The notes beneath the pieces are model-generated. The model saw nothing but the letters and a program-made list of their open reading frames with translations. It was not told the origin of the DNA and ran no database searches. Below are positions 1 through 14,560 of a stretch of DNA of 32,000 nt, one piece after another; the first letter of the stretch is position 1; each line of letters opens with the position of its first letter. Where the stretch lies: positions 1 to 32,000 of the forward strand of contig CAZXEQ010000001.1 in assembly GCA_964640155.1 (NCBI GenBank), given 5' to 3'. Source of the DNA: an uncultured bacterium. Its GTDB lineage: Bacteria > Auribacterota > JACPWU01. The position numbers and the translations under genes are program-made.

Positions 1-138
1 ACTCTTGCAGTATCAGAAGGAACATCTGGTCTCACCGGTACATCTGGAGAAATTACTACATCCCCCATAGGAACATCAGGAGTAACTGCATCCACTCTTG
101 CAGTATCAGAAGGAACATCTGGTCTCACCGGTACATCT
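1..138 (-). repeat. 93-bp (31-codon) in-frame tandem repeat inside PD linker c
   Basis: Positions 1-45 and 94-138 are identical (actcttgcagtatcagaaggaacatctggtctcaccggtacatct), encoding PDVPVRPDVPSDTAR twice. The array may continue beyond the left edge. Confidence 0.85.
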
Positions 139-323
139 ACAGATGGCATTCCCCTATCATCTACAGGTAAAATATCCGGAATTTTAGGCGTGTCTAAAGG
201 AACAGGCACATCATCTGATGGCATTCCAGTCTCTGTTATATCGGGAAGAACTACAGCTTTGTCAGCAACTCCCGAGGAATCATCAGCACTTGCATCCGCA
301 TCCTGGTGATAATCACCATAAAA
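1..323 (-). repeat. Asp/Pro-rich low-complexity linker (PD linker c), running off the left edge
   Basis: The sequence is FYGDYHQDADASADDSSGVADKAVVLPDITETGMPSDDVPVPLDTPKIPDILPVDDRGMPSVDVPVRPDVPSDTARVDAVTPDVPMGDVVISPDVPVRPDVPSDTAR. Confidence 0.8.
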
Positions 324-3300
324 ACATCCCACGAAAGTCAAAGTAGCTGCAATCAATAACGCCATAGCTCCTTTAGTCCTTGGAGCTATTGAAGTCATTT
401 CAGAAACAGAAACTCCTGTTATCTGACTTAATGCTCTAAATACTTCTTCCTTTCTTGACTCTACTCCTCTTACTCTTTCTCTCTCTTGGGCATTAATGCT
501 CTGCGATGTCTGTATGAATCTCATCACTGCTTTAAATTGTTCGTCTAACGATCTATCACTGTTCTCTACTAACAACTTTACAAATCCTTCTTCTCCTCCC
601 ATCTCTTCTATAAAGATTCTTCTCTCTTCTTCTGTCTTTCTCCTGAAATCATCTAGACTCCATAATATCGGTAATACTTCCCCATATGTCCCATGATCTA
701 TTGCTTCGTGTCCCATGACACTGGCTAATACGCTATTTGAATAGGGTCGCCCTGTTCTCTTATTATTTCTCAGTAAGTCATCATCTATCCCTATATATCC
801 CGGATTAATGACTCGCGCTATCGTGTCTCCATCCGAATATATTCCTATTCCTGTCTCTACATTCCTCATCCCGGGGTATTTTGCTATTACTGCTTCCCAC
901 GCTTCCCCTAATCTCTCTTCTTGGAAACCTGTGTATTTTCCTTCACTGATTCTACCCATTCCTGTTGGCTCTGATTGATAACCTACTTCTCCTATTTCTT
1001 TCTTCCCTGTACGTATCGGGGTGGGGCCTAAGCCTGTTAAATCTATTTCAAATCTTCCTCCTCCGGCTGGGTTTATATCAGAAGGTCTGACTTGATATTG
1101 TATTACTTGATACATTCTGTCTGAGCCCGCTGCCATTAATGTACTTGTCGCTATGCTTGAATTCCATGTTCCACTTCCAAATGTTCCGGGTCTAAATATA
1201 TACACTCCTCTACTATCTTGGAAAACAACACTAAATCCATTTAAAAGGGTAGGTACAAATTGGAAGTTGATCGCTGATAACCCTGTGGCATCTATCGGAG
1301 TCGCTCTGTATACACTTAAATACGCTACTGCTGTCGAGGTTCCTAAAGGAACATTTCCAGAAAATCTGTAAGCTCGACCCCCTATTGACGTAACACTTGC
1401 CGTTGCTCCGTCTAGTCCTCCAACAGATAAATACGTGCCAGGGAAAAATGTTGGTGAAGGTGCGGGGCCTGATCTCGTACTCCCACTTACACTCCTTGCT
1501 CCTGCAACACTAATAAGTAAGGGGGCAGGAGGCATAACATCTGGAACATCTTCTCCACTTGCATCTACACCTACTTCTGTAGGCGGTACATCTTCAACAT
1601 CTCTCACATCAATACTTGCATCCATTCGTACAACATCGGGACCTGCATCTGGACTAGGCATATCTACCCTAGGAATATCCATAGGAGTTACATCTGCGTC
1701 AGGTCGTGGAACATCCATTGAAACCGGTACGTCTTCAGGCCTTGCGTCCATGGGAACATCTATGCCGACATCCGGCCGTGCATCCGGACCGCGGTCAACA
1801 GGAAACGGCATATCAGGAGAAATTATATCTGGGGTTGCATCAGGACTACCTGCATCTAAAACATCTGTTGGCAAAACTACATCAACAGCTGCATCTGTTA
1901 CATCGGCACCAGCATCTGCTCTGGGCACAGCTGTCGGATGAGAAAGTCCACAGCTTACACCTATGAAAACTGCTAATATAGCAACAACCCCCATCACCCG
2001 GTTTGATACGCCACCTAATGTTCTCCAAAAAAGATTGGGACGTCCTATTTTAAAAATAGTTTTTGTTAATCTATTTTGTAGCTCATTCAACCCCTCTTGT
2101 AACCCCTTAAACGGGCTACCTTTTTTGAATGTAGAAATTTGTTTAAAGAAATTTCCAATTCCTCCGATGAGAAGCGTTAACCACGTCCCTCCAATACTTG
2201 CTTGACTAACCGGCCTCCTCAAATTTTTAGCAACGATATCGATTACTAAATTAGGGGCTGAAACTGCTTGCCCTCCTGTTATCTGACTTAATGCTCTAAA
2301 TACTTCTTCCTTCCTTGACTCTACTCCTCTTACTCTTTCTCTCTCTTGGTCATTAATGCTCTGCGATGCCTCAATAAATCTCATCACTGCTTCAAATTGT
2401 TCGTCCAACGATCTTTCACTGTTCTCTACTAACAACTTTACAAATCCCTCTTCTTCTCCCATCTCTTCCACAAACACTCTTTTCTCTTCAGCAGTCTTAC
2501 GCCTAAAATCATCTAGACTCCATAATATCGGCAATACTTCTCCATATGTCCCATGATCTATTGCTTCATGTCCCATGACACTGGCTATCACACTATTTGA
2601 ATACGGCCGACCTGTTCTTCTATTATCTTTTAATAAGTCATCATCTATTCCTATATATCCCAGATTAATGACTCGGGCAATCGTGTCTCCATCCGAATAT
2701 ATTCCTATTCCTGTATCTACATTCCTCATCCCTGGGTATTTTTCTATTACTTCTGCCCACGCTGCCCCTAATCTCCCTTCCTGGAAACCTGTGTATTTTC
2801 CTTCCCTGATTCTCCCCATTCCTGTTGGCTCTGATTGATAACCTGCTCCTACTTTTATCTTCCCTGTTCGTATCGGAGTTGGACCGCCAGAAACTAATCC
2901 ATTGATATCTAATTCGAATCTGCCTCCTCCAGATGGATTTACATCCGCACCACTGATTTGAATTTGTATCACCTGGAATCTTCCTGACAAACCTGCTGTT
3001 CTCCATCCTGATCCCATCACAGTTGTTGGATTTGTTCCGTACAATAAAAAATTCCAAGCACCACTTCCAAACACACCAGGAATAAATAAACCCACTTGAC
3101 CTCGATTATCTCTTAAAAATGCACGAAAGCTATCGACAAATGTTGCATAAAATCGAACATTCATGACATCACCAGTCAGTCCAGTCGCATCCATTCCAGT
3201 TGGTGACAATGCACTTAAATAAGCTACTGAATTTCCATCGCCTACTACTACCGTTCCTTCAAATCGATACGTATTTGGCCCAATCCAACGAGATGTTCTT

Positions 3301-6300
3301 ACGATTGCCCCGCCTACTCCAGCTGGTGTAAAATAGCTGTTTGAAAAATATGTTGGCATACGAAGACCACTGACTGTTTGTCCTTCAAGTCTTAGAGCTA
3401 CAGTTACAGGAATAAGCTCAGGAGCAGGAGGTGCAACATCTACTCTTGTATCTTGTGGAACATCCACCCTAACTTCTGGACCTCTATCAGTTGCAACATC
3501 TAATGCTGCATCTGGTGGCACTGGAACATCTGGTGATCTTAAAGCATCTATCGGTGTTGCTACATCCGGTGAATATGAATCCATGCTCGTTGTATCAGTG
3601 AAAACTCCTGCATCAGTAGTAGTGGCATCTATAGCTGCTACATCAGAAACTGGCGCATCAACACCTTCATCAACTGTAGGTATGTCACCACTCACGACCT
3701 CTATCGGAGCAGAGGCATCGACAACGGAAATATCTGCTGGGGGCATAGCATCTGGGATTGCTGGCATATCAACTGGCAGGCGTACATCTGATGCCGATTG
3801 ATCTACAAAAGCATCAGAAACTCCTGCGTCCGGAGTTTGCGTACGAACATGACATAAGCTCATTAAATCAAAGGAAAAACGACCTGAATCAAGAACATTT
3901 TGCGCAGGAATTTGAATTTGTATGGTTCTAAACTGCCCACTTCCTCCAGAATCTCTCACCATTCCCATGGAAAGCTCCTGAGTCCACACTCCTTCCGTCA
4001 AAGGTAAAGTCGTAGAATGATAATATCTAGAATCTCCTTTAGAACGTCTCTCAAAATCCTCTAACGCTAAAAATAAATCTCTCAGCCCAGTCTGACGAAA
4101 ACGGATATTCATTTGATCGCCCGGTAGACTTCTAGCATCCATAGGCATATCTCCCATGGAAATCGTTATATAAACTCCCGCTCCGGAAGAAATTCCCGCA
4201 TCTTGCGAAACTGGCATTTGTCCTTCTACGCGATAATGATCACCTTCTGAAATAAGTCTAGCTCTTGCACCTCCTAGCGTGGTAATTCTCACACTTGTAC
4301 CAGGAAAATAAGTAGCCGGAGTCTCTTGCCTTCTAGAAGTTTGTCCAGTTAGAGGTGATGTTCCTCTAATAGGAATAGGAGGTGGTCCATCAGTAACTTC
4401 TTCTAATCCAGAATCGGAAACTGCAGCCTCGGCATCCACACCAGTTTCTGCAGCAACACCTTCCTCACGCAAAGGCCCAAAACATCCCACAAAAGTCAAA
4501 GTAGCTGCAATCAATAACGCCATAGCTCCTTTAGTCCTTGGAGATATTGAAGTCACTGCAGAAACAGAAACTCCTGTAATCTGACTTAATGCTCTAAATA
4601 CTTCTGCCTTCCTTGACTCTACTCCTCTTACTCTTTCTCTCTCTTGCTCATTAATGCTCTGCGAGGTCTGTATGAATCTCATCACTGCTTTAAATTGTTC
4701 GTCCAACGATCTTTCACTGTTCTCTACTAACAACTTTACAAATCCTTCTTCTGATCCCATCTCTTCTATAAAGATTCTTCTCTCTTCTTCTGTCTTTCTA
4801 CTGAAATCATCTAGACTCCATAATATCGGTAATACTTCCCCATATGTCCCATGATCTATTGCTTCGTGTCCCATGACACTGGCTAATACGCTATTTGAAT
4901 AGGGTCGCCCTGTTCTCTTATTATTTCTCAGTAAGTCATCATCTATCCCTATATATCCCGGATTAATGACTCGCGCTATCGTGTCTCCATCCGAATATAT
5001 TCCTATTCCTGTCTCTACATTCCTCATCCCGGGGTATTTTGCTATTACTGCTTCCCACGCTTCCCCTAATCTCTCTTCTTGGAAACCTGTGTATTTTCCT
5101 TCACTGATTCTACCCATTCCTGTTGGCTCTGATTGATAACCTACTTCTCCTATTTCTTTCTTCCCTGTACGTATCGGGGTGGGGCCTAAGCCTGTTAAAT
5201 CTATTTCAAATCTTCCTCCTCCGGCTGGGTTTATATCAGAAGGTCTGACTTGATATTGTATTACTTGATACATTCTGTCTGAGCCCGCTGCCATTAATGT
5301 ACTTGTCGCTATGCTTGAATTCCATGTTCCACTTCCAAATGTTCCAGGTCTAAATACATACACTCCTCTACTGTCTTGGAAAACAACACTAAATCCATTT
5401 AATAGGGTAGGTACAAATTGGAAGTTGATCGCTGATAATCCTGTGGCATCTATGGGAGTTGCTCTATATACACTTAAATATGCTACTGCTGTCGAGGTTC
5501 CTAAAGGAACCATTCCAGAAAATCTGTATGCTCTACCCCCTATTGACGTAACACTTGCTGTTGCTCCGTCTAATCCTCCAGCAACCAAATATGCCCCTGA
5601 AAAAAAAGTCGGTGATGTAGCTGTTCCTGATGTCGTACTCCCACTTATACTCCTTGCTCCTGCAACGCTGATCAATGCCGGTGCTATGGGTGGTATAGCC
5701 AAAGCATCTATCTGTAAAGCAACACTTACAGTTGGACTTGTCCCACTTGTGACTTGATCTCCTCCCACTTGAACTTCAATCTGAGCTATATTTGAGGCGC
5801 TAAATCCAGAGGGTAAACTTGAAACTAATATTTCCCCACGACCAAACATACCAGGGGTTACCGTCACAGGAGCAACTCCCGTAACAATTCGTCCAGAACC
5901 ATCTTGTAATTGATAGGTTACTCTTGCAACATTGGTAACATTACCAATACCAATATGAAGTTGACCAGTCACCGCTGTGCCTGTTGTAAAATTTCTTGCT
6001 GCACCCGCTGGAATCCTATAAACCGTAATCATTTTGGATCCGGCCATTCCTCGAGTCACTGTTCCACTTGCATTCCATACAAGTCTTGATGTAGTAACAC
6101 CCGATACGGATGAAGCTGATCTTGATAAGGGTGCTGTACTCCAAGAACCTATTCCTGAGCCCCCTCCGTATCCAACTGTTTCTACAGTCACACCCGGTCT
6201 AAAATCAATTGGACCATCTACAACATTCGTAACGGGAAAGGTAGGTGAAGCTAAAGGTAAATCTGCGACAGTCAATGCCTTGGGTCCACTCAATGCTACT

Positions 6301-9300
6301 TCTACTAGCCCACTTCCATCTGGGATGTGTCGTCCCTCTATGACTCTGATAAGTCTAAATGTATTGGCATTGATTAGGGCAGGTACTTCAGATGCTGGCC
6401 TTCCCATCGCTGCTGCAAGTCGATTGATTAATTCCATTCGGTCTACTACAGGCACTCCCCACATCGTTGCTCGGCCATTTGTTACTTCTACAGTCGCTTG
6501 ATAGGTCGCTCCTCCAACCACTAACTCTGCCTTTAATGTATATCCATTTAGATTTCCTCGTGTGTCCCTTAATCCCGAGCTCCATGTGCTGTCACTTAAA
6601 AATGCCGTCTTTCCTGCTGCGCTGAGTTCACTTGAGAAGCCTGCAAATGCTCCTCCACTGACTCCCGTGTATCTGAGTCTCCTTGTGTACATCACTGTTC
6701 CATGTGCTTCTCTATCTGTGACAACATTCTCTGCTACGGTTACAACTCCCATTGTTCCAAATGCACTCTCCGTTGTGACTCCATAAAAGTCTTCTGTTCC
6801 ATCTGCACTTGCTGTCACTCGTAATGGATTGCTTGCGTTAAAGTCTGTGATGGTTAATGCCTTGGGTCCACTCAATGCTACTTCTACTGTCCCACTTCCA
6901 TCTGTGATGTGTCTTCCCTCTATAACTCTAATAAGTCTAAATGTATTGGCATTGATTAATGCAGGCACTTCAGCTGGTGTTCTTCCCATCGCGGCTGCGA
7001 GTCGGTTTATTAATTCCATTCGGTCTACTACCGGTACTCCCCACATCGTTGCTCTTCCATTTGTTACTTCTACTGTCGCTTGATACGTCGCTGTCCCTAT
7101 CACTAATTCTGCCTTTAACGTATATCCATTCAGATTTCCACGTGTGTCTCTTAACCCCGATGTCCATGTGCTGTCTGCTAAAAACGCTGTCTTTCCTGCT
7201 GCGTTGAGTTCACTTGAAAAGCCTGCAAATGCTCCTCCCATGACTCCCGTGTATCTTAATCTTCGGGTGTACATCACAGGTCCATGTGCCTCTCGATCTG
7301 TGACTACATTCTCTGCGACTGTTACAACTCCCGTTGTCCCAAATGCACTCTCGGTCGTGACTCCATAAAAGTCTTCTGTTCCATCTGCACTTGCTGTCAC
7401 TCGTAATGGATTGCTTGCATTAAAATCTGTGATGGTTAGTCTCTTCGCTCCTATTAAGGCCACTCTCACTTCTGTTCCACTAGTTAATTGGCTTCCAGCT
7501 ACTTTCCTCTGAAGCCTAAACACTCCAATTCGTATCATCCCTTCTAATGTTGTTCGATCTACTCCCGTTGCCAAAGCCAATCTTTGCAGTAACATATTTC
7601 TATCAACTGGCGCAAAACCTACAGCATTCATTCCTACTCTTCTTGGAATATCTATCTGAGCTTGTCTTGTACGTAATACTCCCATAGCATCGCGATATTC
7701 TAATTCAGCCTGTAACGTATATCCTCTTAAGTTTCCCGTTAAATCATTAATTCCTGAGACCCAAGTTGAGTCTGCCAAAAATGCTGTTTTACCTGCATCA
7801 TCCAACTCTTCACTATAACCAAATGACAATCCACCCGTAACTCCTGTCGCAACAAGCCGTCTTACGTATTGTTCACCACTACTCATCACGCCTTCAGCTC
7901 TCGCATCAATGACTGAATCTGTGACTGTCACTGCACTTGAAGAAAACACACCTGAGGTTCTTACTCCATAATAATCTATTTCTCCACTAGCGCTTTCCAT
8001 ACCTCGAAGTGTATTGCTTGCATAAAAATCTGAAATAGTTAGACGTTTAGGTCCGCTCATTCCAACATCTACAATATCGCTGCCATCTGTAATATGACGT
8101 CCTTCAATCACTCTCATGAGTCTGAAAGGATTATTTCTAATTAAACCCTCTACTTCTGAAACAGATCTTCCCATTCTTGCAGCAAGTTGAGTAATTAATT
8201 CCATCCGATTCACGACGGGCACTCCCCACATCGTCCCTCTCATATTAGAAACTTCAACATCTGCTTGATACTTCATACCGCCAATCTCTAATTCAGCTCT
8301 CAATGTATATCCACTGAGATTCCCTCGTCTATCCTTTAACCCTGATGTCCACTGTGCATCTGATAAAAATGCTGCCTTACCTTCAGCATTTAATTCAGTT
8401 AAAAATGCAGCATATCTATTTCTTGATACTCCTGAATATCGTACTTGCCTTGTATACATTTCTGTTCCATGAGGATCTCGATCTGTAACAATATTTTCCT
8501 CTACTGTTACCAAAGGTCGTCCAGTTGAAACATCCACTGTTCCAAAAGCATTTTCTGACTCTACACCATAAAAATCATCTACACCGTCCGCACTTGCATT
8601 CACTCGGATAGTTGTATCCACCATTAATTTTGACATATAGACCACACCATGAGCGCTGGACCCTCCAGCTGATTCCGCAACAGCACCAATATTTCTCACA
8701 TCTTCCCACCGTACAGGTGATTGTCCTGAAGGAACAGGGAAAACCCGTCTTAAATCTTCTTCACGAATTTCAATTCTATTTGAACTATTGGGAGTTGTGT
8801 TAGCTTGCAGTTCTATTCTGAATTTTCCAATTCTTCCATCTCTTAATGTAATCTGAAAATAAATTATCTGAGCTGTATCTGTTTTAACATACCGACGAAG
8901 AACACCTCCTGAAGCGGTGACGGCCCTTCTAATATTTTGAGCAGTCATTTCTGCAGTTCCCTCAAGAGATTGTCCTACCGCAGCGTATTCTCCACCATTC
9001 AAAGTCCAATCCCACTGAATACTTGCGCCATCTGCTACACGTATCGGTTCTGCGTTTGCATCAATATTGGTAACGACAACATCAGAGCTGGATGTCCGCG
9101 TTGGATTTCCAAGGCCAGCAATCTGGGTTGGTGCAGGACCCGTTCCATTATCTTGTTGAACAGTTAAAGAAACAACATTTGCAGTTTGTGTAGATTTAAT
9201 TCCTACTACTCTCATTCGTCCTCTTCTAGCGCGAAAAGAAGGATGATTACTGGGTTCTTCTAAAGTCAATTCAGAAGCAGCTGTTACAAGGTCTCGTCCA

Positions 9301-12300
9301 CGCTCATCCACTAACTGATTTCTTGGAAGACGCACTCGGTACCACGAGTTAGGACGTAACCCTCGCATTAGAAAATGTTTTGTGGTTGTTTGACCAGAAG
9401 CATCAAAACGCGCATTAAAATTGACTCTCATATTGACAGGTTCGCTGCTTCCAGGGGTCATAACTTCTCCACGTGCATTGAGAACTTCATTAATGCCTTC
9501 CAAAAACACCCAGAACACAACGTCATTACCTGTTACCATAAGATCATTTGAAATATTGCGTCCCGCAGCGTTTACTGCCGTAAAAGGGAAAGCCATAACC
9601 GCATATTCTGGCATGTTTTGAGTATTACCATTACGATCTAAATCCCATGTATACCCAATAGCTCTCTCACCAGATCTACGTCCTTCTACAGGAGTTGGTG
9701 ATACCACACTCAATACAAGGCCACTTCCTCCTGTCGCAGAAGTTGCTGAAAGCGCATTCGTCACAAAAGTTGGCATGCCTTCTGCGGTTTGAGTAACTTC
9801 AGCATCTACGGCTAATAAAGAAGGCGGAACACCACATGCCTCCATCAAGATTGCTCCCGCAAGACCTATAGGGGCTGCAACAGATTTAAGCAACATACCT
9901 AAAGCAAAAATGACTGAAATAAATCGACTTCCAAGAAGACCGGAATAATGACGAATCGTTGCAACTCTTTCTCTTAACCTGCGTTCATAGTTAATTGAGG
10001 CACTTGGTCTTCTTGGTTCAAGACCTTTATCTTGTAGTCTTTGAATTAAACGGAAAAAAGTTTGTTCTGTAACTTCCCCTCGCTGACCTCTCACACGAAC
10101 GTCAGATTTATCTTTAAAAGAAACAATAACTTCATAATCATTTCTGTTCGCAGCAGGAATAAATTGAATTTGGTCAATCGTTCGATAAAACTCAGGATAT
10201 TCGTTCCTTAATACTTGATGAAGTCGAGACAACCTGGCTTCTTCATCCAAAAATAGTGGTGGAGCTTGTCCTACAAAAACACTCAACTCTTGTAATAATT
10301 GAGTCCGTGCGGCGTCTCCTAAGTTTAAACCTTTGTCTTCTAGAGCCTCTAAGATAACTCCCCAAAATTGACTGGTAATTAAACCCCCTTCTCTATCCAC
10401 TCCAAGATTTTTAAACACTGTTGTTCCATCAGAAAGACGAATTTGGACGACCCCAACTTCATTCGAACCTGCTCTTACACCATCAGGAAATAAACCATAG
10501 TTTGTAATACGCAAATAAAAAGCAGGATCATTTGCTCGAATGCTGTCTATCACTCTCTGAAGCGCAACAATAACATCATCCCCTTTTTGACCTTGAGATA
10601 AACCAGCTCCAGCCACAGAAGATGAAGATCTAGAGAAAAAATAATCATCAGCAACTACCCTTTCTAAATTAGATCTTTGACGATGTGCAGCTTCATTTTC
10701 CTGCCTTCTATGTTCTCTAGCAAAGTGAATGAACCCTGCGAATAAACCAATGCTCGCCAAAACTATTACAATAATGGCTGCCCATCGACTTGTTCCAGAA
10801 GGCGGACGTATGGATTGAGCAATTAAAGATTTTAACTCTCTTACTCTTTGAGCGAGTTTTCTTTCATAAAGTTCTTCATTTTTATTTATATCTTCCGGTG
10901 TTTTTGTGGGGCCAAAACGAACGTGTTTTACAAGTTCATCTAACTGACGATCCATACCATCTTGTGTCATGCGTCTAGCTTCAACTTCTATTCTTAATCT
11001 TGCTTTTTCTGCTTCATAATCTTTCACCGACCCCACTGCAATAGCACCTAATTTCAATTGCTTACCTTCGCTATTGGGTGCCGTAGCCTGAATCAAAGCC
11101 CATTCAAACTTGACCACAGGAACATAAATCGTTTTTCCATTTCTGAAATAGGTTTGTACCTTAACGCTGACAATAGGATCAATCTTGCTTTTGGCTTGAG
11201 CAGCCTTTTGAGCTAACTCTTCTTGAACCTCTTTCGTTTTTCCTTCTCTACGCAGCTTAAGAAGTTTTTGAACATCGTCCTCACTTAAACCTACGTATCT
11301 AGCGATGGCAGGAATATCTTGAAAAAAAGTATTCGTATTCATCCAAGGCACAGTTGCAGAGTTCACATCTGATGGAAGTTGTGGATCTTCTACTCCTACT
11401 AATGTCCCATTTTGTGCTAAAAGAGATCCACCTTTTTGACCTTCAGGTCGAGAAGCAACCTCCATGACAGACTCAACACCATGCTCTTTATTCATCTCCA
11501 CAAAAATCCCTAACATCACCCAAAAATCTTCGTCAATATTCGAAACAGCATTATCCACATTCATAACATAAACAAATTTTCTATCCTGTTCAAGAAGGTC
11601 TAGCAAAGTACCACTACGAACAAGATCTGCAATCCAGTCAAAATGATTCTGAACATAAGTAATAGGTTTGCCTTCCGGATCTCTTGCTGTTTCAGCAGGA
11701 TGGGCATTTGCATAAGCTAAAATTTGTTCATATTGATCAATAGTGTCTTGAAGAGTTCGACGCCCATCATCGCTCAAAGATTCTCCACCTTCAAGTCGAG
11801 CACGTGCCTTTTTTGCATCTTTCGCATAAGAACTATTTTCAATATCTGCAACAGTTGGAACACCTGCTTGCGCACCTCCTTGAGTGAATAAGCGAAGTTC
11901 TTCTGGACTCCATCCAAAATTTCCATGACGAGCTAAATAATCTCTCGCAGGTTCATCGGTATTCGGTCCAGTCATTAAAAGAGGAAGAAGACCACTGTCT
12001 CTCTCTCCCATCACTTGCATCAAAAACAGTTCAAGAAAGGTATAGGCTCTTCCATCAATGACAATAGCTGGCACTTGAGCTTTTGCAATAATTTTAGAAA
12101 GGTCTTCACGGTCTGTTTCAGGAAGAGCATCAAAAAGGGGTTTAAAACGCGGATCCGCACGCATGGCCTGTACTTTCATACGTGAAGCATCTCCACCAAC
12201 CATCATGGCTGCTACAGCCTCTTTGGAATGAGCACGACCCAGAGCTTCATAGCGTGCACGATCTTCTGAAGATAATGTGCGAATATCTTTAATAAGAGAA

Positions 12301-14492
12301 TGCTCTTGAACAGGCTGAACTCGCTCAACTTTTTTAGTTTTAAGCTTTCCGCGAAGATAGGCCTCATAGGCTGGATCTCTACCTTCTTGTCCAGTAGCTG
12401 GAGCATTTTTTTGAGCATCAAATTCAGCTGCAGCCACCAAACGACTCGAAAGAGCTTCTAATGTTAATGGTTCACCATCTTTTGCTTGAACGATCAATCC
12501 TCTTCGTTCACCATTAACAATAATTTCAACAAAATATCTTCCCCCTATTAGCTCAGGCTTGTGCACTTCAATTTGAGATTCTGCTTTACTTATCACACTA
12601 GCGATAGTTTTACTTAATTTTTCTTTCCATAGAGCCAAAAGTCTTTGCCAATCCTTATTAGATGTCACAGAAAGAAATTGGAGAACCACAATATCTAAAA
12701 GAGATGCGGCTTCAAGAGACTCTAGTTTTCTAGCAATAAGTTCTGCATCTGCACCAGCATCTCTTACCACTCCTGGATCTTGCCCCATACTTAGAGGAGC
12801 AACAACACTATGCGTCTTGGAAGAAACATCCTTTGTATGTTTTACATCTGTATTCCTAGTAACTGGGGGCTGATAACTAGGGGCTGATGCATGCGTCACT
12901 ATTTCCTTTAAAAGCACATTTTCTAATTCGCTTCTCTCATCTTCCATGATGCTGCGATAAGGAGTTTTAACTTTCAGATCTGTGACTTTGGGAGTGACGA
13001 TGACATAAGAGATGCCTTGTTGTTTAAGCTTTTCAGCCATGCCTTCGGTGTGAAAGCCTCCGGCGAGCAAAACTGTGGTTTGTGATTTATGGTTCAATGT
13101 GTTTTTCACCATCACTTCATCACGTTTTTCAGCCACTTCATAAAATTTCTTTAATTGAGCAATATCTTTAGAAACTTTATCTAATGTTTCTAAGCCATTC
13201 GCATCAATTTTATATTTTTTAGCTAAAGCTTGAATGCTTTCGTGAATCTTTTTCCCATCAACTTGCTTTTTACCTTCCTGATAAAGATTCCAATCGACGC
13301 GTCTCAATTCTAAACGATAGAAAGTCTCAATAAATTCTATTTTTTCTTGCAACTGATGGATTTCTTTTTCTTCCTGAGTCTTTTCTAAACTTTCACGAAC
13401 TCTTGATTCCCATTGTCCAATTTCTTTCAAAAGCTGATCTTTGGCTATCGCATCAAATAATTTAACATACGAGATGTAATTTTTAAAATTCTTCTCTGTG
13501 TTAATGTTTTCTTTCTTCTCTTCTATTTTGCTTGAGAGATAAGCATAAAATTGTGCGGGTTCAATTTTTTCTAAGCGCAAATACAAACTTTGCGTCAAAA
13601 ATTCGGCACGTTCTTCTTTAGACATTTTTGGAAGCAAGCGCTCCATGACTTTGGCTTGCTCTTTTTGGATTTGATTAAAATCTATAACTTTTGAGATCTT
13701 TTCAGCTTGAATGTATTGACCGATATTTTTCAAATCATCTGTATTGATTTTTTTTACTTTGCTTTGCTTTTGCAAATATTCCAAATATTCGGCTAATCCC
13801 TTTCCCCCTTTTTCATAGTCTTCACGGAATTTTGAGTATTCTTTTAACTCTAAGTTAAAAACTTTTTCTCTTAATTCTTTTAAGACTTTTTCAGCTTTCT
13901 CAAACATTCCTTCAGATTGGTCTCTTAAATTTAAAGACTTGTCATACCAGTGCACATTCTGTAAATACAATCCCATCTCTTCTGCACCTTGAATATTTAA
14001 TGGCTGATCTTTCACGATCGATAAGTATTCGGCACCATTGATTTTTCCTTTTCTCATGTAATACAGGGCTAATTCTTTTTTCATCGCTGGATCAGGGAAG
14101 GAAGTCAAAAGAGACGTATCAACATTTCCGCTGGCACCTTCGACATTGACCACTTTAAGACCATGTCCTTCATGTTTCTTGAACAAATCTTCTAAAATTC
14201 TGGCTTCATTGGATTGAGCTTCAAAGTGACAGTGCATATCTTGAAGTTGAATAACAATGGGATTTCCTGCCTTACCTTGAAATTTTGATTGGATTTGACC
14301 AAATTTGGCTGGGATTTTGATGTCTTTAACACTTAGCGGAGTCTGATCTTGTGCGTTTTTAGACACACTTTTAGACTGAATTGGGTCTATTTCTAAGCCT
14401 TGAACAGGTAAACTAGTGATTAAAAAGGTAAATGCTGTAAGAAATGAGATGAATTTTCTCAAAGGTTTATTCTTGAAAGTTGACTGCCCCAT
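1..14492 (-). CDS. Second giant ORF, 3'-partial (4,830 codons inside the window), missing from the ORF track; exported or membrane multi-domain protein with UDPGP-like region, 4 tandem repeats and at least 3 beta-domain + HExxH modules
   Basis: Reverse-complement reading from ATG at 14492 (cat at 14490-14492 on +) gives MGQSTFKNKPLRKFISFLTAFTFLITSLPVQGLEIDPIQSK... There is an in-frame TAA upstream at 14520-14522 and no other start codon between. I translated this frame (minus codons starting at positions with p mod 3 = 2) by hand down to position 3 and met no stop. I made exact codon-by-codon checks at 1-60, 11340-11603, 12180-12218, 14341-14492 and at every motif listed below. The four minus-strand ORFs the track lists here (2665..3057, 6388..6585, 6970..7167, 12212..12421) are all in other frames. 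A stop-closed ORF in this frame would have been listed, so its absence fits an ORF running off the left edge without a stop. Confidence 0.8.
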   Translation of the reverse strand, partial: MGQSTFKNKPLRKFISFLTAFTFLITSLPVQGLEIDPIQSKSVSKNAQDQTPLSVKDIKIPAKFGQIQSKFQGKAGNPIVIQLQDMHCHFEAQSNEARILEDLFKKHEGHGLKVVNVEGASGNVDTSLLTSFPDPAMKKELALYYMRKGKINGAEYLSIVKDQPLNIQGAEEMGLYLQNVHWYDKSLNLRDQSEGMFEKAEKVLKELREKVFNLELKEYSKFREDYEKGGKGLAEYLEYLQKQSKVKKINTDDLKNIGQYIQAEKISKVIDFNQIQKEQAKVMERLLPKMSKEERAEFLTQSLYLRLEKIEPAQFYAYLSSKIEEKKENINTEKNFKNYISYVKLFDAIAKDQLLKEIGQWESRVRESLEKTQEEKEIHQLQEKIEFIETFYRLELRRVDWNLYQEGKKQVDGKKIHESIQALAKKYKIDANGLETLDKVSKDIAQLKKFYEVAEKRDEVMVKNTLNHKSQTTVLLAGGFHTEGMAEKLKQQGISYVIVTPKVTDLKVKTPYRSIMEDERSELENVLLKEIVTHASAPSYQPPVTRNTDVKHTKDVSSKTHSVVAPLSMGQDPGVVRDAGADAELIARKLESLEAASLLDIVVLQFLSVTSNKDWQRLLALWKEKLSKTIASVISKAESQIEVHKPELIGGRYFVEIIVNGERRGLIVQAKDGEPLTLEALSSRLVAAAEFDAQKNAPATGQEGRDPAYEAYLRGKLKTKKVERVQPVQEHSLIKDIRTLSSEDRARYEALGRAHSKEAVAAMMVGGDASRMKVQAMRADPRFKPLFDALPETDREDLSKIIAKAQVPAIVIDGRAYTFLELFLMQVMGERDSGLLPLLMTGPNTDEPARDYLARHGNFGWSPEELRLFTQGGAQAGVPTVADIENSSYAKDAKKARARLEGGESLSDDGRRTLQDTIDQYEQILAYANAHPAETARDPEGKPITYVQNHFDWIADLVRSGTLLDLLEQDRKFVYVMNVDNAVSNIDEDFWVMLGIFVEMNKEHGVESVMEVASRPEGQKGGSLLAQNGTLVGVEDPQLPSDVNSATVPWMNTNTFFQDIPAIARYVGLSEDDVQKLLKLRREGKTKEVQEELAQKAAQAKSKIDPIVSVKVQTYFRNGKTIYVPVVKFEWALIQATAPNSEGKQLKLGAIAVGSVKDYEAEKARLRIEVEARRMTQDGMDRQLDELVKHVRFGPTKTPEDINKNEELYERKLAQRVRELKSLIAQSIRPPSGTSRWAAIIVIVLASIGLFAGFIHFAREHRRQENEAAHRQRSNLERVVADDYFFSRSSSSVAGAGLSQGQKGDDVIVALQRVIDSIRANDPAFYLRITNYGLFPDGVRAGSNEVGVVQIRLSDGTTVFKNLGVDREGGLITSQFWGVILEALEDKGLNLGDAARTQLLQELSVFVGQAPPLFLDEEARLSRLHQVLRNEYPEFYRTIDQIQFIPAANRNDYEVIVSFKDKSDVRVRGQRGEVTEQTFFRLIQRLQDKGLEPRRPSASINYERRLRERVATIRHYSGLLGSRFISVIFALGMLLKSVAAPIGLAGAILMEACGVPPSLLAVDAEVTQTAEGMPTFVTNALSATSATGGSGLVLSVVSPTPVEGRRSGERAIGYTWDLDRNGNTQNMPEYAVMAFPFTAVNAAGRNISNDLMVTGNDVVFWVFLEGINEVLNARGEVMTPGSSEPVNMRVNFNARFDASGQTTTKHFLMRGLRPNSWYRVRLPRNQLVDERGRDLVTAASELTLEEPSNHPSFRARRGRMRVVGIKSTQTANVVSLTVQQDNGTGPAPTQIAGLGNPTRTSSSDVVVTNIDANAEPIRVADGASIQWDWTLNGGEYAAVGQSLEGTAEMTAQNIRRAVTASGGVLRRYVKTDTAQIIYFQITLRDGRIGKFRIELQANTTPNSSNRIEIREEDLRRVFPVPSGQSPVRWEDVRNIGAVAESAGGSSAHGVVYMSKLMVDTTIRVNASADGVDDFYGVESENAFGTVDVSTGRPLVTVEENIVTDRDPHGTEMYTRQVRYSGVSRNRYAAFLTELNAEGKAAFLSDAQWTSGLKDRRGNLSGYTLRAELEIGGMKYQADVEVSNMRGTMWGVPVVNRMELITQLAARMGRSVSEVEGLIRNNPFRLMRVIEGRHITDGSDIVDVGMSGPKRLTISDFYASNTLRGMESASGEIDYYGVRTSGVFSSSAVTVTDSVIDARAEGVMSSGEQYVRRLVATGVTGGLSFGYSEELDDAGKTAFLADSTWVSGINDLTGNLRGYTLQAELEYRDAMGVLRTRQAQIDIPRRVGMNAVGFAPVDRNMLLQRLALATGVDRTTLEGMIRIGVFRLQRKVAGSQLTSGTEVRVALIGAKRLTITDFNASNPLRVTASADGTEDFYGVTTESAFGTTGVVTVAENVVTDREAHGPVMYTRRLRYTGVMGGAFAGFSSELNAAGKTAFLADSTWTSGLRDTRGNLNGYTLKAELVIGTATYQATVEVTNGRATMWGVPVVDRMELINRLAAAMGRTPAEVPALINANTFRLIRVIEGRHITDGSGTVEVALSGPKALTITDFNASNPLRVTASADGTEDFYGVTTESAFGTMGVVTVAENVVTDREAHGTVMYTRRLRYTGVSGGAFAGFSSELSAAGKTAFLSDSTWSSGLRDTRGNLNGYTLKAELVVGGATYQATVEVTNGRATMWGVPVVDRMELINRLAAAMGRPASEVPALINANTFRLIRVIEGRHIPDGSGLVEVALSGPKALTVADLPLASPTFPVTNVVDGPIDFRPGVTVETVGYGGGSGIGSWSTAPLSRSASSVSGVTTSRLVWNASGTVTRGMAGSKMITVYRIPAGAARNFTTGTAVTGQLHIGIGNVTNVARVTYQLQDGSGRIVTGVAPVTVTPGMFGRGEILVSSLPSGFSASNIAQIEVQVGGDQVTSGTSPTVSVALQIDALAIPPIAPALISVAGARSISGSTTSGTATSPTFFSGAYLVAGGLDGATASVTSIGGRAYRFSGMVPLGTSTAVAYLSVYRATPIDATGLSAINFQFVPTLLNGFSVVFQDSRGVYVFRPGTFGSGTWNSSIATSTLMAAGSDRMYQVIQYQVRPSDINPAGGGRFEIDLTGLGPTPIRTGKKEIGEVGYQSEPTGMGRISEGKYTGFQEERLGEAWEAVIAKYPGMRNVETGIGIYSDGDTIARVINPGYIGIDDDLLRNNKRTGRPYSNSVLASVMGHEAIDHGTYGEVLPILWSLDDFSRKTEEERRIFIEEMGSEEGFVKLLVENSERSLDEQFKAVMRFIQTSQSINEQERERVRGVESRKAEVFRALSQITGVSVSAVTSISPRTKGAMALLIAATLTFVGCFGPLREEGVAAETGVDAEAAVSDSGLEEVTDGPPPIPIRGTSPLTGQTSRRQETPATYFPGTSVRITTLGGARARLISEGDHYRVEGQMPVSQDAGISSGAGVYITISMGDMPMDARSLPGDQMNIRFRQTGLRDLFLALEDFERRSKGDSRYYHSTTLPLTEGVWTQELSMGMVRDSGGSGQFRTIQIQIPAQNVLDSGRFSFDLMSLCHVRTQTPDAGVSDAFVDQSASDVRLPVDMPAIPDAMPPADISVVDASAPIEVVSGDIPTVDEGVDAPVSDVAAIDATTTDAGVFTDTTSMDSYSPDVATPIDALRSPDVPVPPDAALDVATDRGPEVRVDVPQDTRVDVAPPAPELIPVTVALRLEGQTVSGLRMPTYFSNSYFTPAGVGGAIVRTSRWIGPNTYRFEGTVVVGDGNSVAYLSALSPTGMDATGLTGDVMNVRFYATFVDSFRAFLRDNRGQVGLFIPGVFGSGAWNFLLYGTNPTTVMGSGWRTAGLSGRFQVIQIQISGADVNPSGGGRFELDINGLVSGGPTPIRTGKIKVGAGYQSEPTGMGRIREGKYTGFQEGRLGAAWAEVIEKYPGMRNVDTGIGIYSDGDTIARVINLGYIGIDDDLLKDNRRTGRPYSNSVIASVMGHEAIDHGTYGEVLPILWSLDDFRRKTAEEKRVFVEEMGEEEGFVKLLVENSERSLDEQFEAVMRFIEASQSINDQERERVRGVESRKEEVFRALSQITGGQAVSAPNLVIDIVAKNLRRPVSQASIGGTWLTLLIGGIGNFFKQISTFKKGSPFKGLQEGLNELQNRLTKTIFKIGRPNLFWRTLGGVSNRVMGVVAILAVFIGVSCGLSHPTAVPRADAGADVTDAAVDVVLPTDVLDAGSPDATPDIISPDMPFPVDRGPDARPDVGIDVPMDARPEDVPVSMDVPRPDADVTPMDIPRVDMPSPDAGPDVVRMDASIDVRDVEDVPPTEVGVDASGEDVPDVMPPAPLLISVAGARSVSGSTRSGPAPSPTFFPGTYLSVGGLDGATASVTSIGGRAYRFSGNVPLGTSTAVAYLSVYRATPIDATGLSAINFQFVPTLLNGFSVVFQDSRGVYIFRPGTFGSGTWNSSIATSTLMAAGSDRMYQVIQYQVRPSDINPAGGGRFEIDLTGLGPTPIRTGKKEIGEVGYQSEPTGMGRISEGKYTGFQEERLGEAWEAVIAKYPGMRNVETGIGIYSDGDTIARVINPGYIGIDDDLLRNNKRTGRPYSNSVLASVMGHEAIDHGTYGEVLPILWSLDDFRRKTEEERRIFIEEMGGEEGFVKLLVENSDRSLDEQFKAVMRFIQTSQSINAQERERVRGVESRKEEVFRALSQITGVSVSEMTSIAPRTKGAMALLIAATLTFVGCFYGDYHQDADASADDSSGVADKAVVLPDITETGMPSDDVPVPLDTPKIPDILPVDDRGMPSVDVPVRPDVPSDTARVDAVTPDVPMGDVVISPDVPVRPDVPSDTAR
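324..365 (-). other. Internal lipoprotein-signal-peptide look-alike L3 (M4710 to C4723)
   Basis: RTKGA-MALLIAATLTFVG-C-FYGDYHQDADASADD has the same peptide as L1. It is again followed by an acidic/Pro-rich linker. Confidence 0.5.
693..710 (-). other. HExxH motif (HEAIDH, ORF A aa 4595-4600) of module M3
   Basis: The codon string is the same as in M1 (cac gaa gca ata gat cat). Confidence 0.55.
1521..1949 (-). repeat. Asp/Pro-rich low-complexity linker (PD linker b, 143 aa)
   Basis: The sequence is GLSHPTAVPRADAGADVTDAAVDVVLPTDVLDAGSPDATPDIISPDMPFPVDRGPDARPDVGIDVPMDARPEDVPVSMDVPRPDADVTPMDIPRVDMPSPDAGPDVVRMDASIDVRDVEDVPPTEVGVDASGEDVPDVMPPAP. Confidence 0.8.
1950..1994 (-). other. Internal lipoprotein-signal-peptide look-alike L2 (M4167 to C4181)
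   Basis: The sequence is GGVSNRV-MGVVAILAVFIGVS-C-GLSHP, with an uncharged core and an I-G-V-S-C tail. A weaker hydrophobic stretch, TWLTLLIGGIGNFF, lies upstream at about 2143-2190. Confidence 0.45.
2265..3424 (-). repeat. Module copy M2 (diverged): J domain about 2886-3424, HEAIDH zincin-like domain about 2265-2885
   Basis: The zincin part is visibly similar to M1 and M3 at nucleotide level (compare 2356..2556 with 496..696 and 4654..4854 in the track). The offsets are 2,298 and 1,860 bp, both multiples of 3. The J part is conserved mainly at protein level. Confidence 0.8.
2553..2570 (-). other. HExxH motif (HEAIDH, ORF A aa 3975-3980) of module M2
   Basis: cat gaa gca ata gat cat, in the context NSVIASVMGHEAIDHGTYGEVLPILWSLDDFRRKTAEEKR. 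Confidence 0.55.
3425..3838 (-). repeat. Asp/Pro/Val/Ala-rich low-complexity linker (PD linker a)
   Basis: The sequence is TQTPDAGVSDAFVDQSASDVRLPVDMPAIPDAMPPADISVVDASAPIEVVSGDIPTVDEGVDAPVSDVAAIDATTTDAGVF...SPDVPVPPDAALDVATDRGPEVRVDVPQDTRVDVAPPAP. Confidence 0.8.
3842..4365 (-). other. Orphan beta jelly-roll-like domain J0 (homologous to the J domains of M1-M3 but with no zincin partner)
   Basis: J0 reads TYFPGTSVRITTLGGARARLISEGDHYRVEGQ...GDQMNIRFRQTGLRDLFLALEDF...GQFRTIQIQIPAQNVLDSGRFSFDLMSL. The M2 J domain reads TYFSNSYFTPAG...YRFEGT...VMNVRFYATFVDSFRAFLRDN...GRFQVIQIQISGADVNPSGGGRFELDINGL. The two align over these pieces. Confidence 0.4.
4482..4523 (-). other. Internal lipoprotein-signal-peptide look-alike L1 (M3324 to C3337)
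   Basis: The sequence is SPRTKGA-MALLIAATLTFVG-C-FGP. It has a basic n-region, an uncharged hydrophobic core and a T-F-V-G-C tail that fits the lipobox pattern. It is followed by an acidic/Pro-rich tether. Confidence 0.5.
4851..4868 (-). other. HExxH motif (HEAIDH, ORF A aa 3209-3214) of module M1
   Basis: cac gaa gca ata gat cat, read from + gtg/ttc/tgc/tat/atc/atg triplets. The context is NSVLASVMGHEAIDHGTYGEVLPILWSLDDFSRKTEEERR, with acidic residues 20-28 aa downstream as a possible third ligand. Confidence 0.55.
5685..6250 (-). other. Gly/Thr/Val-rich beta-type (Ig-like?) spacer domain of ORF A
   Basis: The sequence is VDGPIDFRPGVTVETVGYGGGSGIGSW...KMITVYRIPAGAARNFTTGTAVTGQLHIGIGNVTNVARVTYQLQDGSGRIVTGVAPVTVTPG...IAQIEVQVGGDQVTSGTSPTVSVALQ. 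It alternates hydrophobic and polar residues. I did not recognise a family. Confidence 0.3.
6251..8597 (-). repeat. Four in-frame tandem repeats of an unassigned 194-201-aa domain (R1 8597-7998, R2 7997-7395, R3 7394-6813, R4 6812-about 6251)
   Basis: R3 and R4 are offset by exactly 582 bp. The track's shadow ORFs 6562..6786 and 7144..7368 show the same offset. The shared protein pattern is ASADGTEDFYGV..TDREAHG.VMYTRRLRYTGV..AGKTAFL.DSTW.SGLRDTRGNLNGYTLKAEL..YQATVEVTNGRATMWGVPVVDRMELINRLAAAMGR..FRLIRVIEGRHI.DGSG.VEVALSGPKALTI.DFNASNPLRVT. R1 and R2 are clearly homologous but diverged, with lengths of 200 and 201 aa. Confidence 0.9.
9837..9923 (-). other. Second hydrophobic/TM segment of ORF A (about aa 1524-1552)
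   Basis: The sequence is GSR-FISVIFALGMLLKSVAAPIGLAGAILMEACG-VPP. It is preceded by the basic stretch RRLRERVATIRHYSGLLGSR. Confidence 0.55.
10008..10575 (-). repeat. Weak internal duplication (two units of about 75-85 aa) between the two TM helices of ORF A
   Basis: Unit a (about 10320-10575): DPAFYLRITNYGLFPDG..VGVVQIRLSDGTTVF..REGGLITSQFWGVILEALEDKGLNLG. Unit b (about 10008-10232): YPEFYRTIDQIQFIPAA..YEVIVSFKDKSDVRV..QRGEVTEQTFFRLIQRLQDKGLEP. Shared pattern: FY-R-I, beta-like V-V, Q-F---L--L-DKGL. Confidence 0.35.
10716..10784 (-). other. Transmembrane helix (ORF A aa 1237-1259)
   Basis: The sequence is SGTSR-WAAIIVIVLASIGLFAGFIHF-AREHRRQE. It has 23 uncharged hydrophobic residues flanked by basic residues. 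Confidence 0.6.
11090..12275 (-). other. UDPGP-family (UTP-glucose/GlcNAc-1-phosphate uridylyltransferase-like) domain inside ORF A, about aa 740-1135
   Basis: Four motifs occur in the family order:
- AVAAMMVGGDASRMK (12180-12218), compare the glycine loop GGxGT[SR][ML]G
- AIVIDGRAYTFLELFLMQV
- FVYVMNVDNAVSNIDEDFW (11520-11576), compare NxDNLG
- VMEVASRPEGQKGGSLL (11418-11468), compare EVTxKxxxDxKGGTL
A fifth piece, VPWMNTNTFF (11322-11351), compares with FNTNNxW. The codon-by-codon translation of 11340-11603 was verified. Confidence 0.5.
13044..14249 (-). other. Possible Tiki/TraB/ChaN-like motif pair (very tentative)
   Basis: The N-terminal motif IQLQDMHCHFEAQSNEARILEDL has H87 and H89 at 14226-14234. 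The distal motif TTVLLAGGFHTEGMAEKLKQQGISYVIV has H481 at 13050-13052. This recalls the GxxH...Q and GxGH...G motif pair of that superfamily. The spacing (about 390 aa) is longer than I would expect. Confidence 0.2.
14397..14492 (-). other. N-terminal signal peptide or signal anchor of ORF A
   Basis: MGQSTFKNKPLRKFISFLTAFTFLITSLPVQG/LEIDP has a basic n-region (K,K,R,K) and an uncharged hydrophobic core of about 18 residues. Small residues precede a possible cleavage point. Confidence 0.6.
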
Positions 14493-14500
14493 GTTTATAA

Positions 14501-14506
14501 CCTCTT
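14501..14506 (-). promoter_or_regulatory. Shine-Dalgarno sequence of the 14492 ORF
   Basis: The minus strand reads AAAAGAGGTTATAAAC-ATG. AAGAGG (cctctt on +) lies 8 nt upstream of the ATG. Confidence 0.6.
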
Positions 14507-14560
14507 TTATTTGAATAAGTTATATCATCATCAGCCACTAAAAAAGCTTTTAACATACAT

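Follow-up and report, generated by a model that had tools for sequence, protein, structure and literature searches.

HExxxH is an established catalytic metal motif, identified in DPP III (family M49), TldD and MATCAP/TMCP. In DPP III it occurs as HELLGH-x52-E and lies on a distorted helix. The MATCAP/TMCP enzymes are tubulin carboxypeptidases, described as atypical gluzincins, where HExxxH is accompanied by an EEG motif, and TldD holds Zn or Fe with two His and a remote Cys in a non-zincin fold. Zincin-like metallopeptidase domains, some of them with HEXXXH on a bent helix, have also been described in polyvalent proteins (Iyer et al. 2017). Giant proteins are known from bacteria of the Planctomycetes-Verrucomicrobia-Chlamydiae (PVC) group, to which Auribacterota belongs, and from the related Omnitrophota; they are reported to contain many transmembrane segments together with hydrolase or peptidase domains and have been proposed to act on the surface of prey, and for Omnitrophota roles in prey attachment and cell-wall degradation as well as a possible cleavage into smaller polypeptides have been suggested. 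Their genes are largely unannotated, and export, membrane arrangement and use of the products await explanation. The locus described here is a stretch of 32,000 nucleotides (positions 1 to 32,000 of contig CAZXEQ010000001.1, assembly GCA_964640155.1; the window) from an uncultured bacterium related to Candidatus Auribacterota, where a giant open reading frame (ORF A) contains repeated modules with an HExxxH domain. The giant-protein context is already known; the HExxxH domain, however, is without family or fold relative, and no explanation exists for the lipoprotein signals inside the chain, which are open to direct test.

The module comprises a variable beta-rich domain (about 171-184 aa) followed by a conserved HExxxH domain (~205 aa), and was identified in three copies (M1, M2 and M3) in one frame of the minus strand, forming the C-terminal third of ORF A (Table 1). 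M1 and M3 are 94.6% identical (E=0, BLASTP) and M1 and M2 are 64.6% identical (E 3e-158). A first-pass annotation, made by a model from the letters of the window, had proposed at least three homologous modules in a single frame, which was borne out, and the peptide strings that it quoted are present, with HEAIDH exactly at the positions given. Its array is however not free-standing but part of ORF A, and a fourth, orphan beta-domain was overlooked. The suggestion that the array leaves the window at the left edge, with more modules possible, is plausible, as the frame is open to the edge inside the linker that follows a third lipobox-like segment. The explanation that we favour, tentatively and at somewhat less than an even chance, is that the HExxxH domain is a new and extremely rare gluzincin-like metallohydrolase domain which, together with variable targeting beta-domains, is repeated as lipobox-punctuated cassettes in a giant Auribacterota-like membrane protein.

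The domain is found almost nowhere else. A word-indexed search of 5.8 billion proteins with module 1 gave no match, and GTDB genomes, JGI metagenomes and IMG/VR viral contigs scanned for the module gave no relatives. HMMER, run exhaustively on 1.84 billion representatives with a profile of the three window copies, identified only two outside proteins, P0001 and P0002; the profile of the domain from four sequences (alignment A2) is the more sensitive one, and in a word-indexed search this diverse alignment retrieved P0001 only. P0001, on a JGI contig of 1 kb, is a fragment of 333 aa, whereas P0002 comprises 2553 aa on a 185-kb NCBI contig, P0003 being the same protein. Their domains are 29-37% identical to the window copies. 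In P0001 the order is HExxxH domain, lipobox segment (with its only Cys), Gly/Asp-rich tether and next domain; in P0002 the domain is, as in the window, preceded by a beta-type region, and the same GPTxxxxGK junction was identified at its end. The family had been called unrecognised in the first-pass annotation, correctly: the libraries are silent and the two outside homologues are all that was found among 1.84 billion representatives.

HEAIDH comprises six codons (18 nt) and is HExxxH. The motif had been annotated as HExxH, which is wrong, and HExxH is absent from the whole of ORF A. The window domain has just two His, both in the motif (ORF A residues 3218 and 3223), and the motif Glu is residue 3219. 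The residues invariant in the window copies, P0001 (motif HETTDH) and P0002 (motif HELTPH) are, in domain numbering, H107, E108, H112, G116-E117 in GE(V/I)(L/I)P, P120 and E135. The two downstream Glu correspond to residue 3228 (E117, in GEVLP) and residue 3246 (E135, on the next helix). A loss of the His and Glu in homologues, which would have spoken against the earlier proposal, was not observed: H, E, H and both downstream Glu are retained at 29-37% identity. The region around the motif is enriched in invariant columns (7 of 21, versus 12 of 90 elsewhere; Fisher p=0.036). Cys is absent from the domain in all four family sequences.

The HExxxH domain alone, modelled by AlphaFold from the four-sequence alignment, gave a confident and compact model (mean predicted local distance difference test score, pLDDT, 80; predicted template modelling score 0.80), whereas a run on the whole module with three near-identical sequences was too poor to judge the fold (pLDDT 38). 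The predicted order is a short beta-meander, helix 37-50, strands 59-64 and 78-82, and helix 98-109, which ends in H107-E108; after a break, H112 starts a short helix that is followed by six helices, with pLDDT up to 97. In the model this is how a kinked HExxxH metal site with a helical subdomain behind it would be expected to look. In the prediction, what had been described as an acidic helical tail thus forms a helical subdomain within the HExxxH domain.

The known HExxxH families share features with the window domain, and membership was identified in none of them. With DPP III it shares the six-residue motif with a Glu beside the first His, third-ligand Glu candidates on the following helix, and a helix predicted to be interrupted between the two His, comparable to the distorted helix of DPP III. 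However, it comprises ~205 aa and not more than 700 aa in two lobes, its conserved Glu follow the second His at distances of 5 and 23 residues and not 52, and the other M49 regions are absent; with only HExxxH in common, different spacing and no match in Pfam (E up to 10), PDB sequences or Foldseek, it was not assigned to M49. MATCAP/TMCP likewise have acidic helices after HExxxH, and the window copies present an "EEG" ~34 residues past the motif, but this is missing in P0001 and P0002, and neither Pfam nor Foldseek gave a match; these enzymes are moreover eukaryotic and cytosolic, whereas the window domain is part of a bacterial giant membrane protein. TldD/PmbA (M103), where HExxxH lies on a distorted helix outside the zincin fold, is a precedent for such an origin, although the lack of Cys in the domain of the four sequences and of any PmbA_TldD match in Pfam or Foldseek excludes membership. 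Membership of the classical zincins failed on the motif, P0001 and P0002 also carrying HExxxH in place of HExxH; as to the zincin fold, Foldseek found no match in PDB or BFVD. Of the gluzincin-like metallopeptidase proposed in the first-pass annotation, zincin family membership did not hold; the idea of a Glu-assisted metallohydrolase survives because HExxxH is a catalytic metal motif in the families above. Polyvalent proteins and the Omnitrophota "archaeovorins" are also very large multidomain proteins with divergent peptidase-like domains. The former are, however, phage and plasmid proteins and searches of viral contigs, PHROGs and BFVD gave no relative of the module, whereas the domain lists published for the Omnitrophota proteins name neither lipobox-punctuated cassettes nor the HExxxH domain.

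The two domains of the module have diverged at different rates. Between M1 and M2 the synonymous divergence (dS) is 0.29 in the HExxxH domain and 1.63 (saturated) in the beta-domain; between M1 and M3 it is 0.034 and 0.30, so that dS of the HExxxH domain is 5-9 times lower than that of the adjoining beta-domain. A tract of 545 nt spanning the junction of both domains is perfectly identical between M3 (643-1187) and M1 (4801-5345) with diverged flanks, which indicates a very recent gene conversion as judged from the sequence; it is also a caveat for a short-read assembly. Given the low dS and the identical tract, strong functional constraint cannot be read from the identity of the HExxxH domains among the modules alone.

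Behind each module come a hydrophobic stretch of ~14 residues flanked by K/R, then a Cys of the lipobox type (…TLTFVGC, …FIGVSC) and finally an acidic linker. The core pattern of PROSITE PS51257 matches ORF A three times, versus 0.08 expected from shuffles, and the lipobox Cys are three of the six Cys in the 4839 residues of the ORF A frame. The pattern was also identified in P0001 (Cys144) and twice in P0002 (Cys793 and Cys1221). All three segments present the elements of a lipoprotein signal in order (K/R n-region, hydrophobic h-region, lipobox, Cys), but they sit 3300-4700 residues into ORF A and not at the N-terminus, where the Cys falls within approximately the first 35 residues. The linkers (107-138 residues) are rich in Asp, Pro, Val and Ala, with a net charge of -16 to -25. 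A cassette, the repeating unit, thus runs from lipobox segment through acidic tether and one or more beta-domains to the HExxxH domain, which in ORF A is always the last before the next lipobox; another cassette probably follows linker 3 beyond the window. Internal translation starts at a Met just before two of the lipobox segments were set aside, as this Met is not conserved in P0001 and P0002. No explanation is at hand for the lipobox-punctuated layout, which is arguably of greater interest than the motif. M60-like or enhancin-type glycoproteases of Bacteroidota are surface lipoproteins where a lipobox, a tether and a beta-rich binding domain precede a metallohydrolase (gluzincin) domain; each is encoded by its own gene, has its lipobox at the N-terminus and carries a canonical HExxH...E. 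The cassette logic of ORF A is alike, although a relationship in sequence or fold to these enzymes was not detected.

According to the favoured explanation, ORF A would encode a membrane-associated protein built of such cassettes, where a lipobox-ended hydrophobic segment and an acidic tether carry one or more fast-diverging beta-rich domains and, at the end, the beta-sheet and helical-bundle HExxxH domain. The beta-domains may be targeting or binding units of differing specificity; their pairing with a constant second domain is quantified by a dS of 1.6 versus 0.29. His 3218, His 3223 and one of the invariant Glu (3228 or 3246) would hold a divalent metal, Glu 3219 would activate water, and a kink of the helix would absorb the extra residue between the His, as in DPP III, TldD and MATCAP. 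The enzyme would probably act on a polymer of the cell surface, protein or peptidoglycan, belonging either to another cell or to the cell's own envelope. A putative H/H/E metal site on a kinked helix, with a general-base Glu beside it, would fit all observations. Several results weigh against this explanation. Foldseek identified neither a zincin nor any other significant fold in PDB or BFVD for the confident domain model, and Pfam (E up to 10), NCBIfam, PHROGs, PADLOC and PDB sequence profiles gave no match for any of the four family members. The enrichment of invariant columns is statistically weak and comes from only three independent lineages, and the spacing between the second His and the Glu of GE varies from 4 to 6 residues between them. 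Within the protein, conservation mostly reflects concerted evolution, the high identity of the copies coming largely from gene conversion, and a dN/dS of 0.26-0.39 among the window copies denotes moderate constraint only. Finally, charged residues abound in the domain (26 of its 205 aa are Glu), a common trait of scaffolds and stalks.

An alternative is a non-catalytic scaffold or stalk, a charged helical bundle displaying the beta-domains from the membrane, whose conserved His and Glu would be structural (salt bridges or a structural metal). The lack of any enzyme family or fold match, the moderate constraint with gene conversion as the source of identity, the very high content of Glu, Arg and Lys in the helical bundle that makes up approximately half of the domain, and its constant position directly before a membrane-anchor-like segment all fit this alternative. 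It is considered somewhat less likely than the favoured explanation: the only two His, the adjoining Glu and two more Glu are invariant at ~30% identity with conservation peaking at the motif, H-E-x3-H followed by Glu is the exact composition of known catalytic metal sites, and the small beta-sheet subdomain predicted by the model would be needless in a simple stalk. A metal site with a chemistry other than peptidase, either a 2-His-1-carboxylate iron centre or a metal-dependent amidase, esterase or glycan-modifying hydrolase, is less probable again. An H-x4-H...E motif of the HELLGH type is the iron site of aromatic amino-acid hydroxylases, TldD works with either Fe or Zn, a sugar-nucleotide domain resembling UDPGP in the same ORF hints at glycan chemistry, and the domain lacks a match to any peptidase family or fold. 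However, no data point specifically to iron-centre, amidase, esterase or glycan chemistries, a Glu beside the first His characterises water-activating metallopeptidases, and as far as the description in PMC9324843 goes Auribacterota are anaerobic fermenters, where an O2-dependent oxygenase would be unlikely.

Other alternatives concern the chain as a whole. ORF A may be a polyprotein of lipoprotein cassettes, cut at or near the internal lipoboxes, with the HExxxH domain as a maturation protease in cis or with Lgt and Lsp processing the lipoboxes. The excess of PS51257 matches, the placement of half of the Cys of ORF A between a K/R-flanked hydrophobic stretch and an acidic tether, and the like layout in P0001 and, twice, in P0002 agree with this proposal, as does the cleavage suggested for the Omnitrophota proteins. 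In addition, consecutive single transmembrane segments would be topologically impossible unless the chain is cut, because by the positive-inside rule every segment should be oriented N-in/C-out. On the other hand, a literature search on internal lipobox processing in bacteria found no precedent, only viral polyproteins, no conserved cleavage motif is evident between the HExxxH domain and the lipobox, the HExxxH domain of P0002 precedes a different domain and no lipobox, and the segments may just be alternating transmembrane anchors; we regard a polyprotein as improbable. A slim chance is given to its most specific form, where ORF A is an in-frame chain of lipoprotein cassettes of the Sec and signal peptidase II type, cut into lipid-anchored surface proteins by a new-fold HExxxH metalloprotease in cis. 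If true, this form would be a bacterial counterpart of the viral glycoprotein polyproteins and a mechanism for export and deployment of the giant proteins of PVC bacteria and Omnitrophota. An assembly artefact, where mis-joined reads across repeats produced the number and order of the copies, is hardly credible. The perfect tract shared by M1 and M3 exceeds typical short-read inserts, but outside of it the copies differ (73-98% identity per 60-nt window), M2 is clearly distinct, the frame is unbroken over 14.5 kb, and the cassette layout was found again in the independent P0001 and P0002.

The locus is a compact unit that can be tested: its 205-aa domain is modelled confidently, has a conserved signature (H-E-x3-H...E) and is without a detectable relative in fold. 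Should this domain bind a metal and hydrolyse a substrate, it would represent a new metallohydrolase family, possibly with a new fold, and the first activity assigned to such giant proteins; if it is a scaffold, it would be one more dark repeat in a giant protein. The layout raises the tractable question of whether these are polytopic membrane proteins or precursors of several lipoproteins.

Table 1. Features of the window; HEAIDH positions are given with the HExxxH domains and all coordinates are nucleotides of the window.
Feature	Position	Strand	ORF A residues	Remarks
ORF A	3-14492	minus		at least 4830 aa; carries all modules; C-terminus past left window edge
ORF B	14609-31999	minus		at least 5797 aa (5797 codons); N-terminus past right window edge
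Module M1	4572-5696	minus	2942-3316	
M1 beta-rich domain	5187-5696	minus	2942-3111	self-BLAST and four-copy hidden Markov model
M1 HExxxH domain	4572-5186	minus	3112-3316	HEAIDH 4851-4868; AlphaFold model ma358b176285e
Lipoprotein-signal-like segment 1	4482-4544	minus		PRTKGAMALLIAATLTFVGC; Cys3346; PROSITE PS51257 core pattern
Orphan beta-domain	3852-4388	minus	3378-3556	no HExxxH partner; BLASTP E 2e-8 to M1 beta-domain
Linker 1	3438-3851	minus		Asp/Val/Ala/Pro-rich; net charge -22
Module M2	2274-3437	minus	3695-4082	
M2 beta-rich domain	2886-3437	minus	3695-3878	~44% identity to M1 beta-domain
M2 HExxxH domain	2274-2885	minus	3879-4082	HEAIDH 2553-2570; 85-89% identity to M1 domain
Lipoprotein-signal-like segment 2	1950-2012	minus		NRVMGVVAILAVFIGVSC; Cys4190; PROSITE PS51257 core pattern
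Linker 2	1539-1949	minus		Asp/Pro/Val-rich; net charge -25
Module M3	414-1538	minus	4328-4702	
M3 beta-rich domain	1029-1538	minus	4328-4497	
M3 HExxxH domain	414-1028	minus	4498-4702	HEAIDH 693-710
Lipoprotein-signal-like segment 3	324-386	minus		Cys4732; PROSITE PS51257 core pattern
Linker 3	3-323	minus		Asp/Val/Pro-rich; runs off window
N-terminal domain of ORF A	12840-14360	minus		~500 aa
UDPGP-like segment	11268-11699	minus	932-1075	PF01704; Pfam E 2.4e-10
Two ~100-aa units	9960-10620	minus	~1300-1520	27.5% identity over 80 aa, E 3e-5
Four tandem ~200-aa repeats	6195-8636	minus	1962-2775	37-62% mutual identity
HExxH island of ORF B	16016-16030	minus		near C-terminus of ORF B

The orphan beta-domain is the fourth beta-rich copy, with about 26-28% identity and full-length alignment with the three module copies. 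None of the four copies has a Pfam match at E up to 10 or a significant PDB profile match; the CBM- or jelly-roll-like character given to the first domain in the first-pass annotation is therefore a putative one. A PDB hit to the "zinc metallohydrolase lipoprotein" 9urd (E 0.89, sub-threshold) was dismissed as chance, since it was the beta-domain and not the HExxxH domain that aligned to its HExxH region. A further beta-type domain may be present directly upstream of M1 (residues ~2790-2935), where by eye the terminal strand pattern (IAQIEVQV…ALQIDAL) resembles that of the module beta-domain.

Upstream of the cassettes ORF A comprises a signal-like N-terminus, the N-terminal domain of 500 aa, the UDPGP-like segment, two transmembrane regions and the four ~200-aa repeats. 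Its frame is open from 3 to 14519, and the start ATG at 14490-14492 is preceded by the Shine-Dalgarno sequence AAAGAGG. The N-terminus is signal-peptide-like, a Sec-type signal or anchor. The N-terminal domain has no Pfam match and presents the motifs VIQLQDMHCHFEAQSN and LLAGGFHTEG, its His motifs presumably resembling those of the Tiki/TraB/ChaN superfamily. The UDPGP-like segment, similar to UTP-glucose-1-phosphate uridylyltransferase, is the only part of ORF A recognisable by Pfam or PDB; it comes after the signal-like N-terminus and ahead of the first transmembrane helix, where a nucleotide-sugar enzyme would be oddly placed if this part of the chain is extracytoplasmic. The two ~100-aa units, weakly alike, are placed between the first and second transmembrane regions, and the ~200-aa repeats are without a match in Pfam or PDB.

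The closest genome to the locus is a Candidatus Auribacterota metagenome-assembled genome (MAG). In its contig JAYRIK010000164 a gene is 81% identical to the N-terminal domain of ORF A and 86% identical over the next ~970 aa, with the C-terminus of an ORF B orthologue (60% identity) directly upstream; the contig stops short of the modules. Copies of the N-terminal domain (loci L002-L017) stand at the start of proteins with lengths from 710 to more than 3900 aa, in Auribacterota and, more distantly related, in Omnitrophota, Elusimicrobia and a "Chlamydiae" MAG, and the module is absent from those of Omnitrophota, Elusimicrobia and the "Chlamydiae" MAG.

The TAA of ORF B and the ATG of ORF A are 116 nt apart, and the two ORFs are likely to be co-transcribed, as a scan of this gap found neither a terminator-like nor a promoter-like site. 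P0002 is a mosaic of both. With ORF A it shares the N-terminal domain (47% identity) and one HExxxH domain (31%), with ORF B the C-terminal domain (26%), and it carries two lipobox cassettes. At the sequence level such a fusion of the Rosetta-stone type implies a functional link between ORFs A and B, whose products would work together. ORF B contains several clusters of transmembrane helices and has no Pfam matches. Homology between the HExxxH domain of the module and the HExxH island of ORF B was rejected (hhalign probability 0.1%), and an alignment (A5) of the domain that follows HExxxH in P0002 and the HExxH island in ORF B, used as bait for divergent HExx(x)H domains, gave no matches. The island itself (GQTVIYLQEAFVRQLL…DVVIHLLGERLFHELGHTN) is a canonical HExxH, almost perfectly kept in the Auribacterota orthologue versus ~60% overall identity, and this conservation suggests a minimal zincin-like site.

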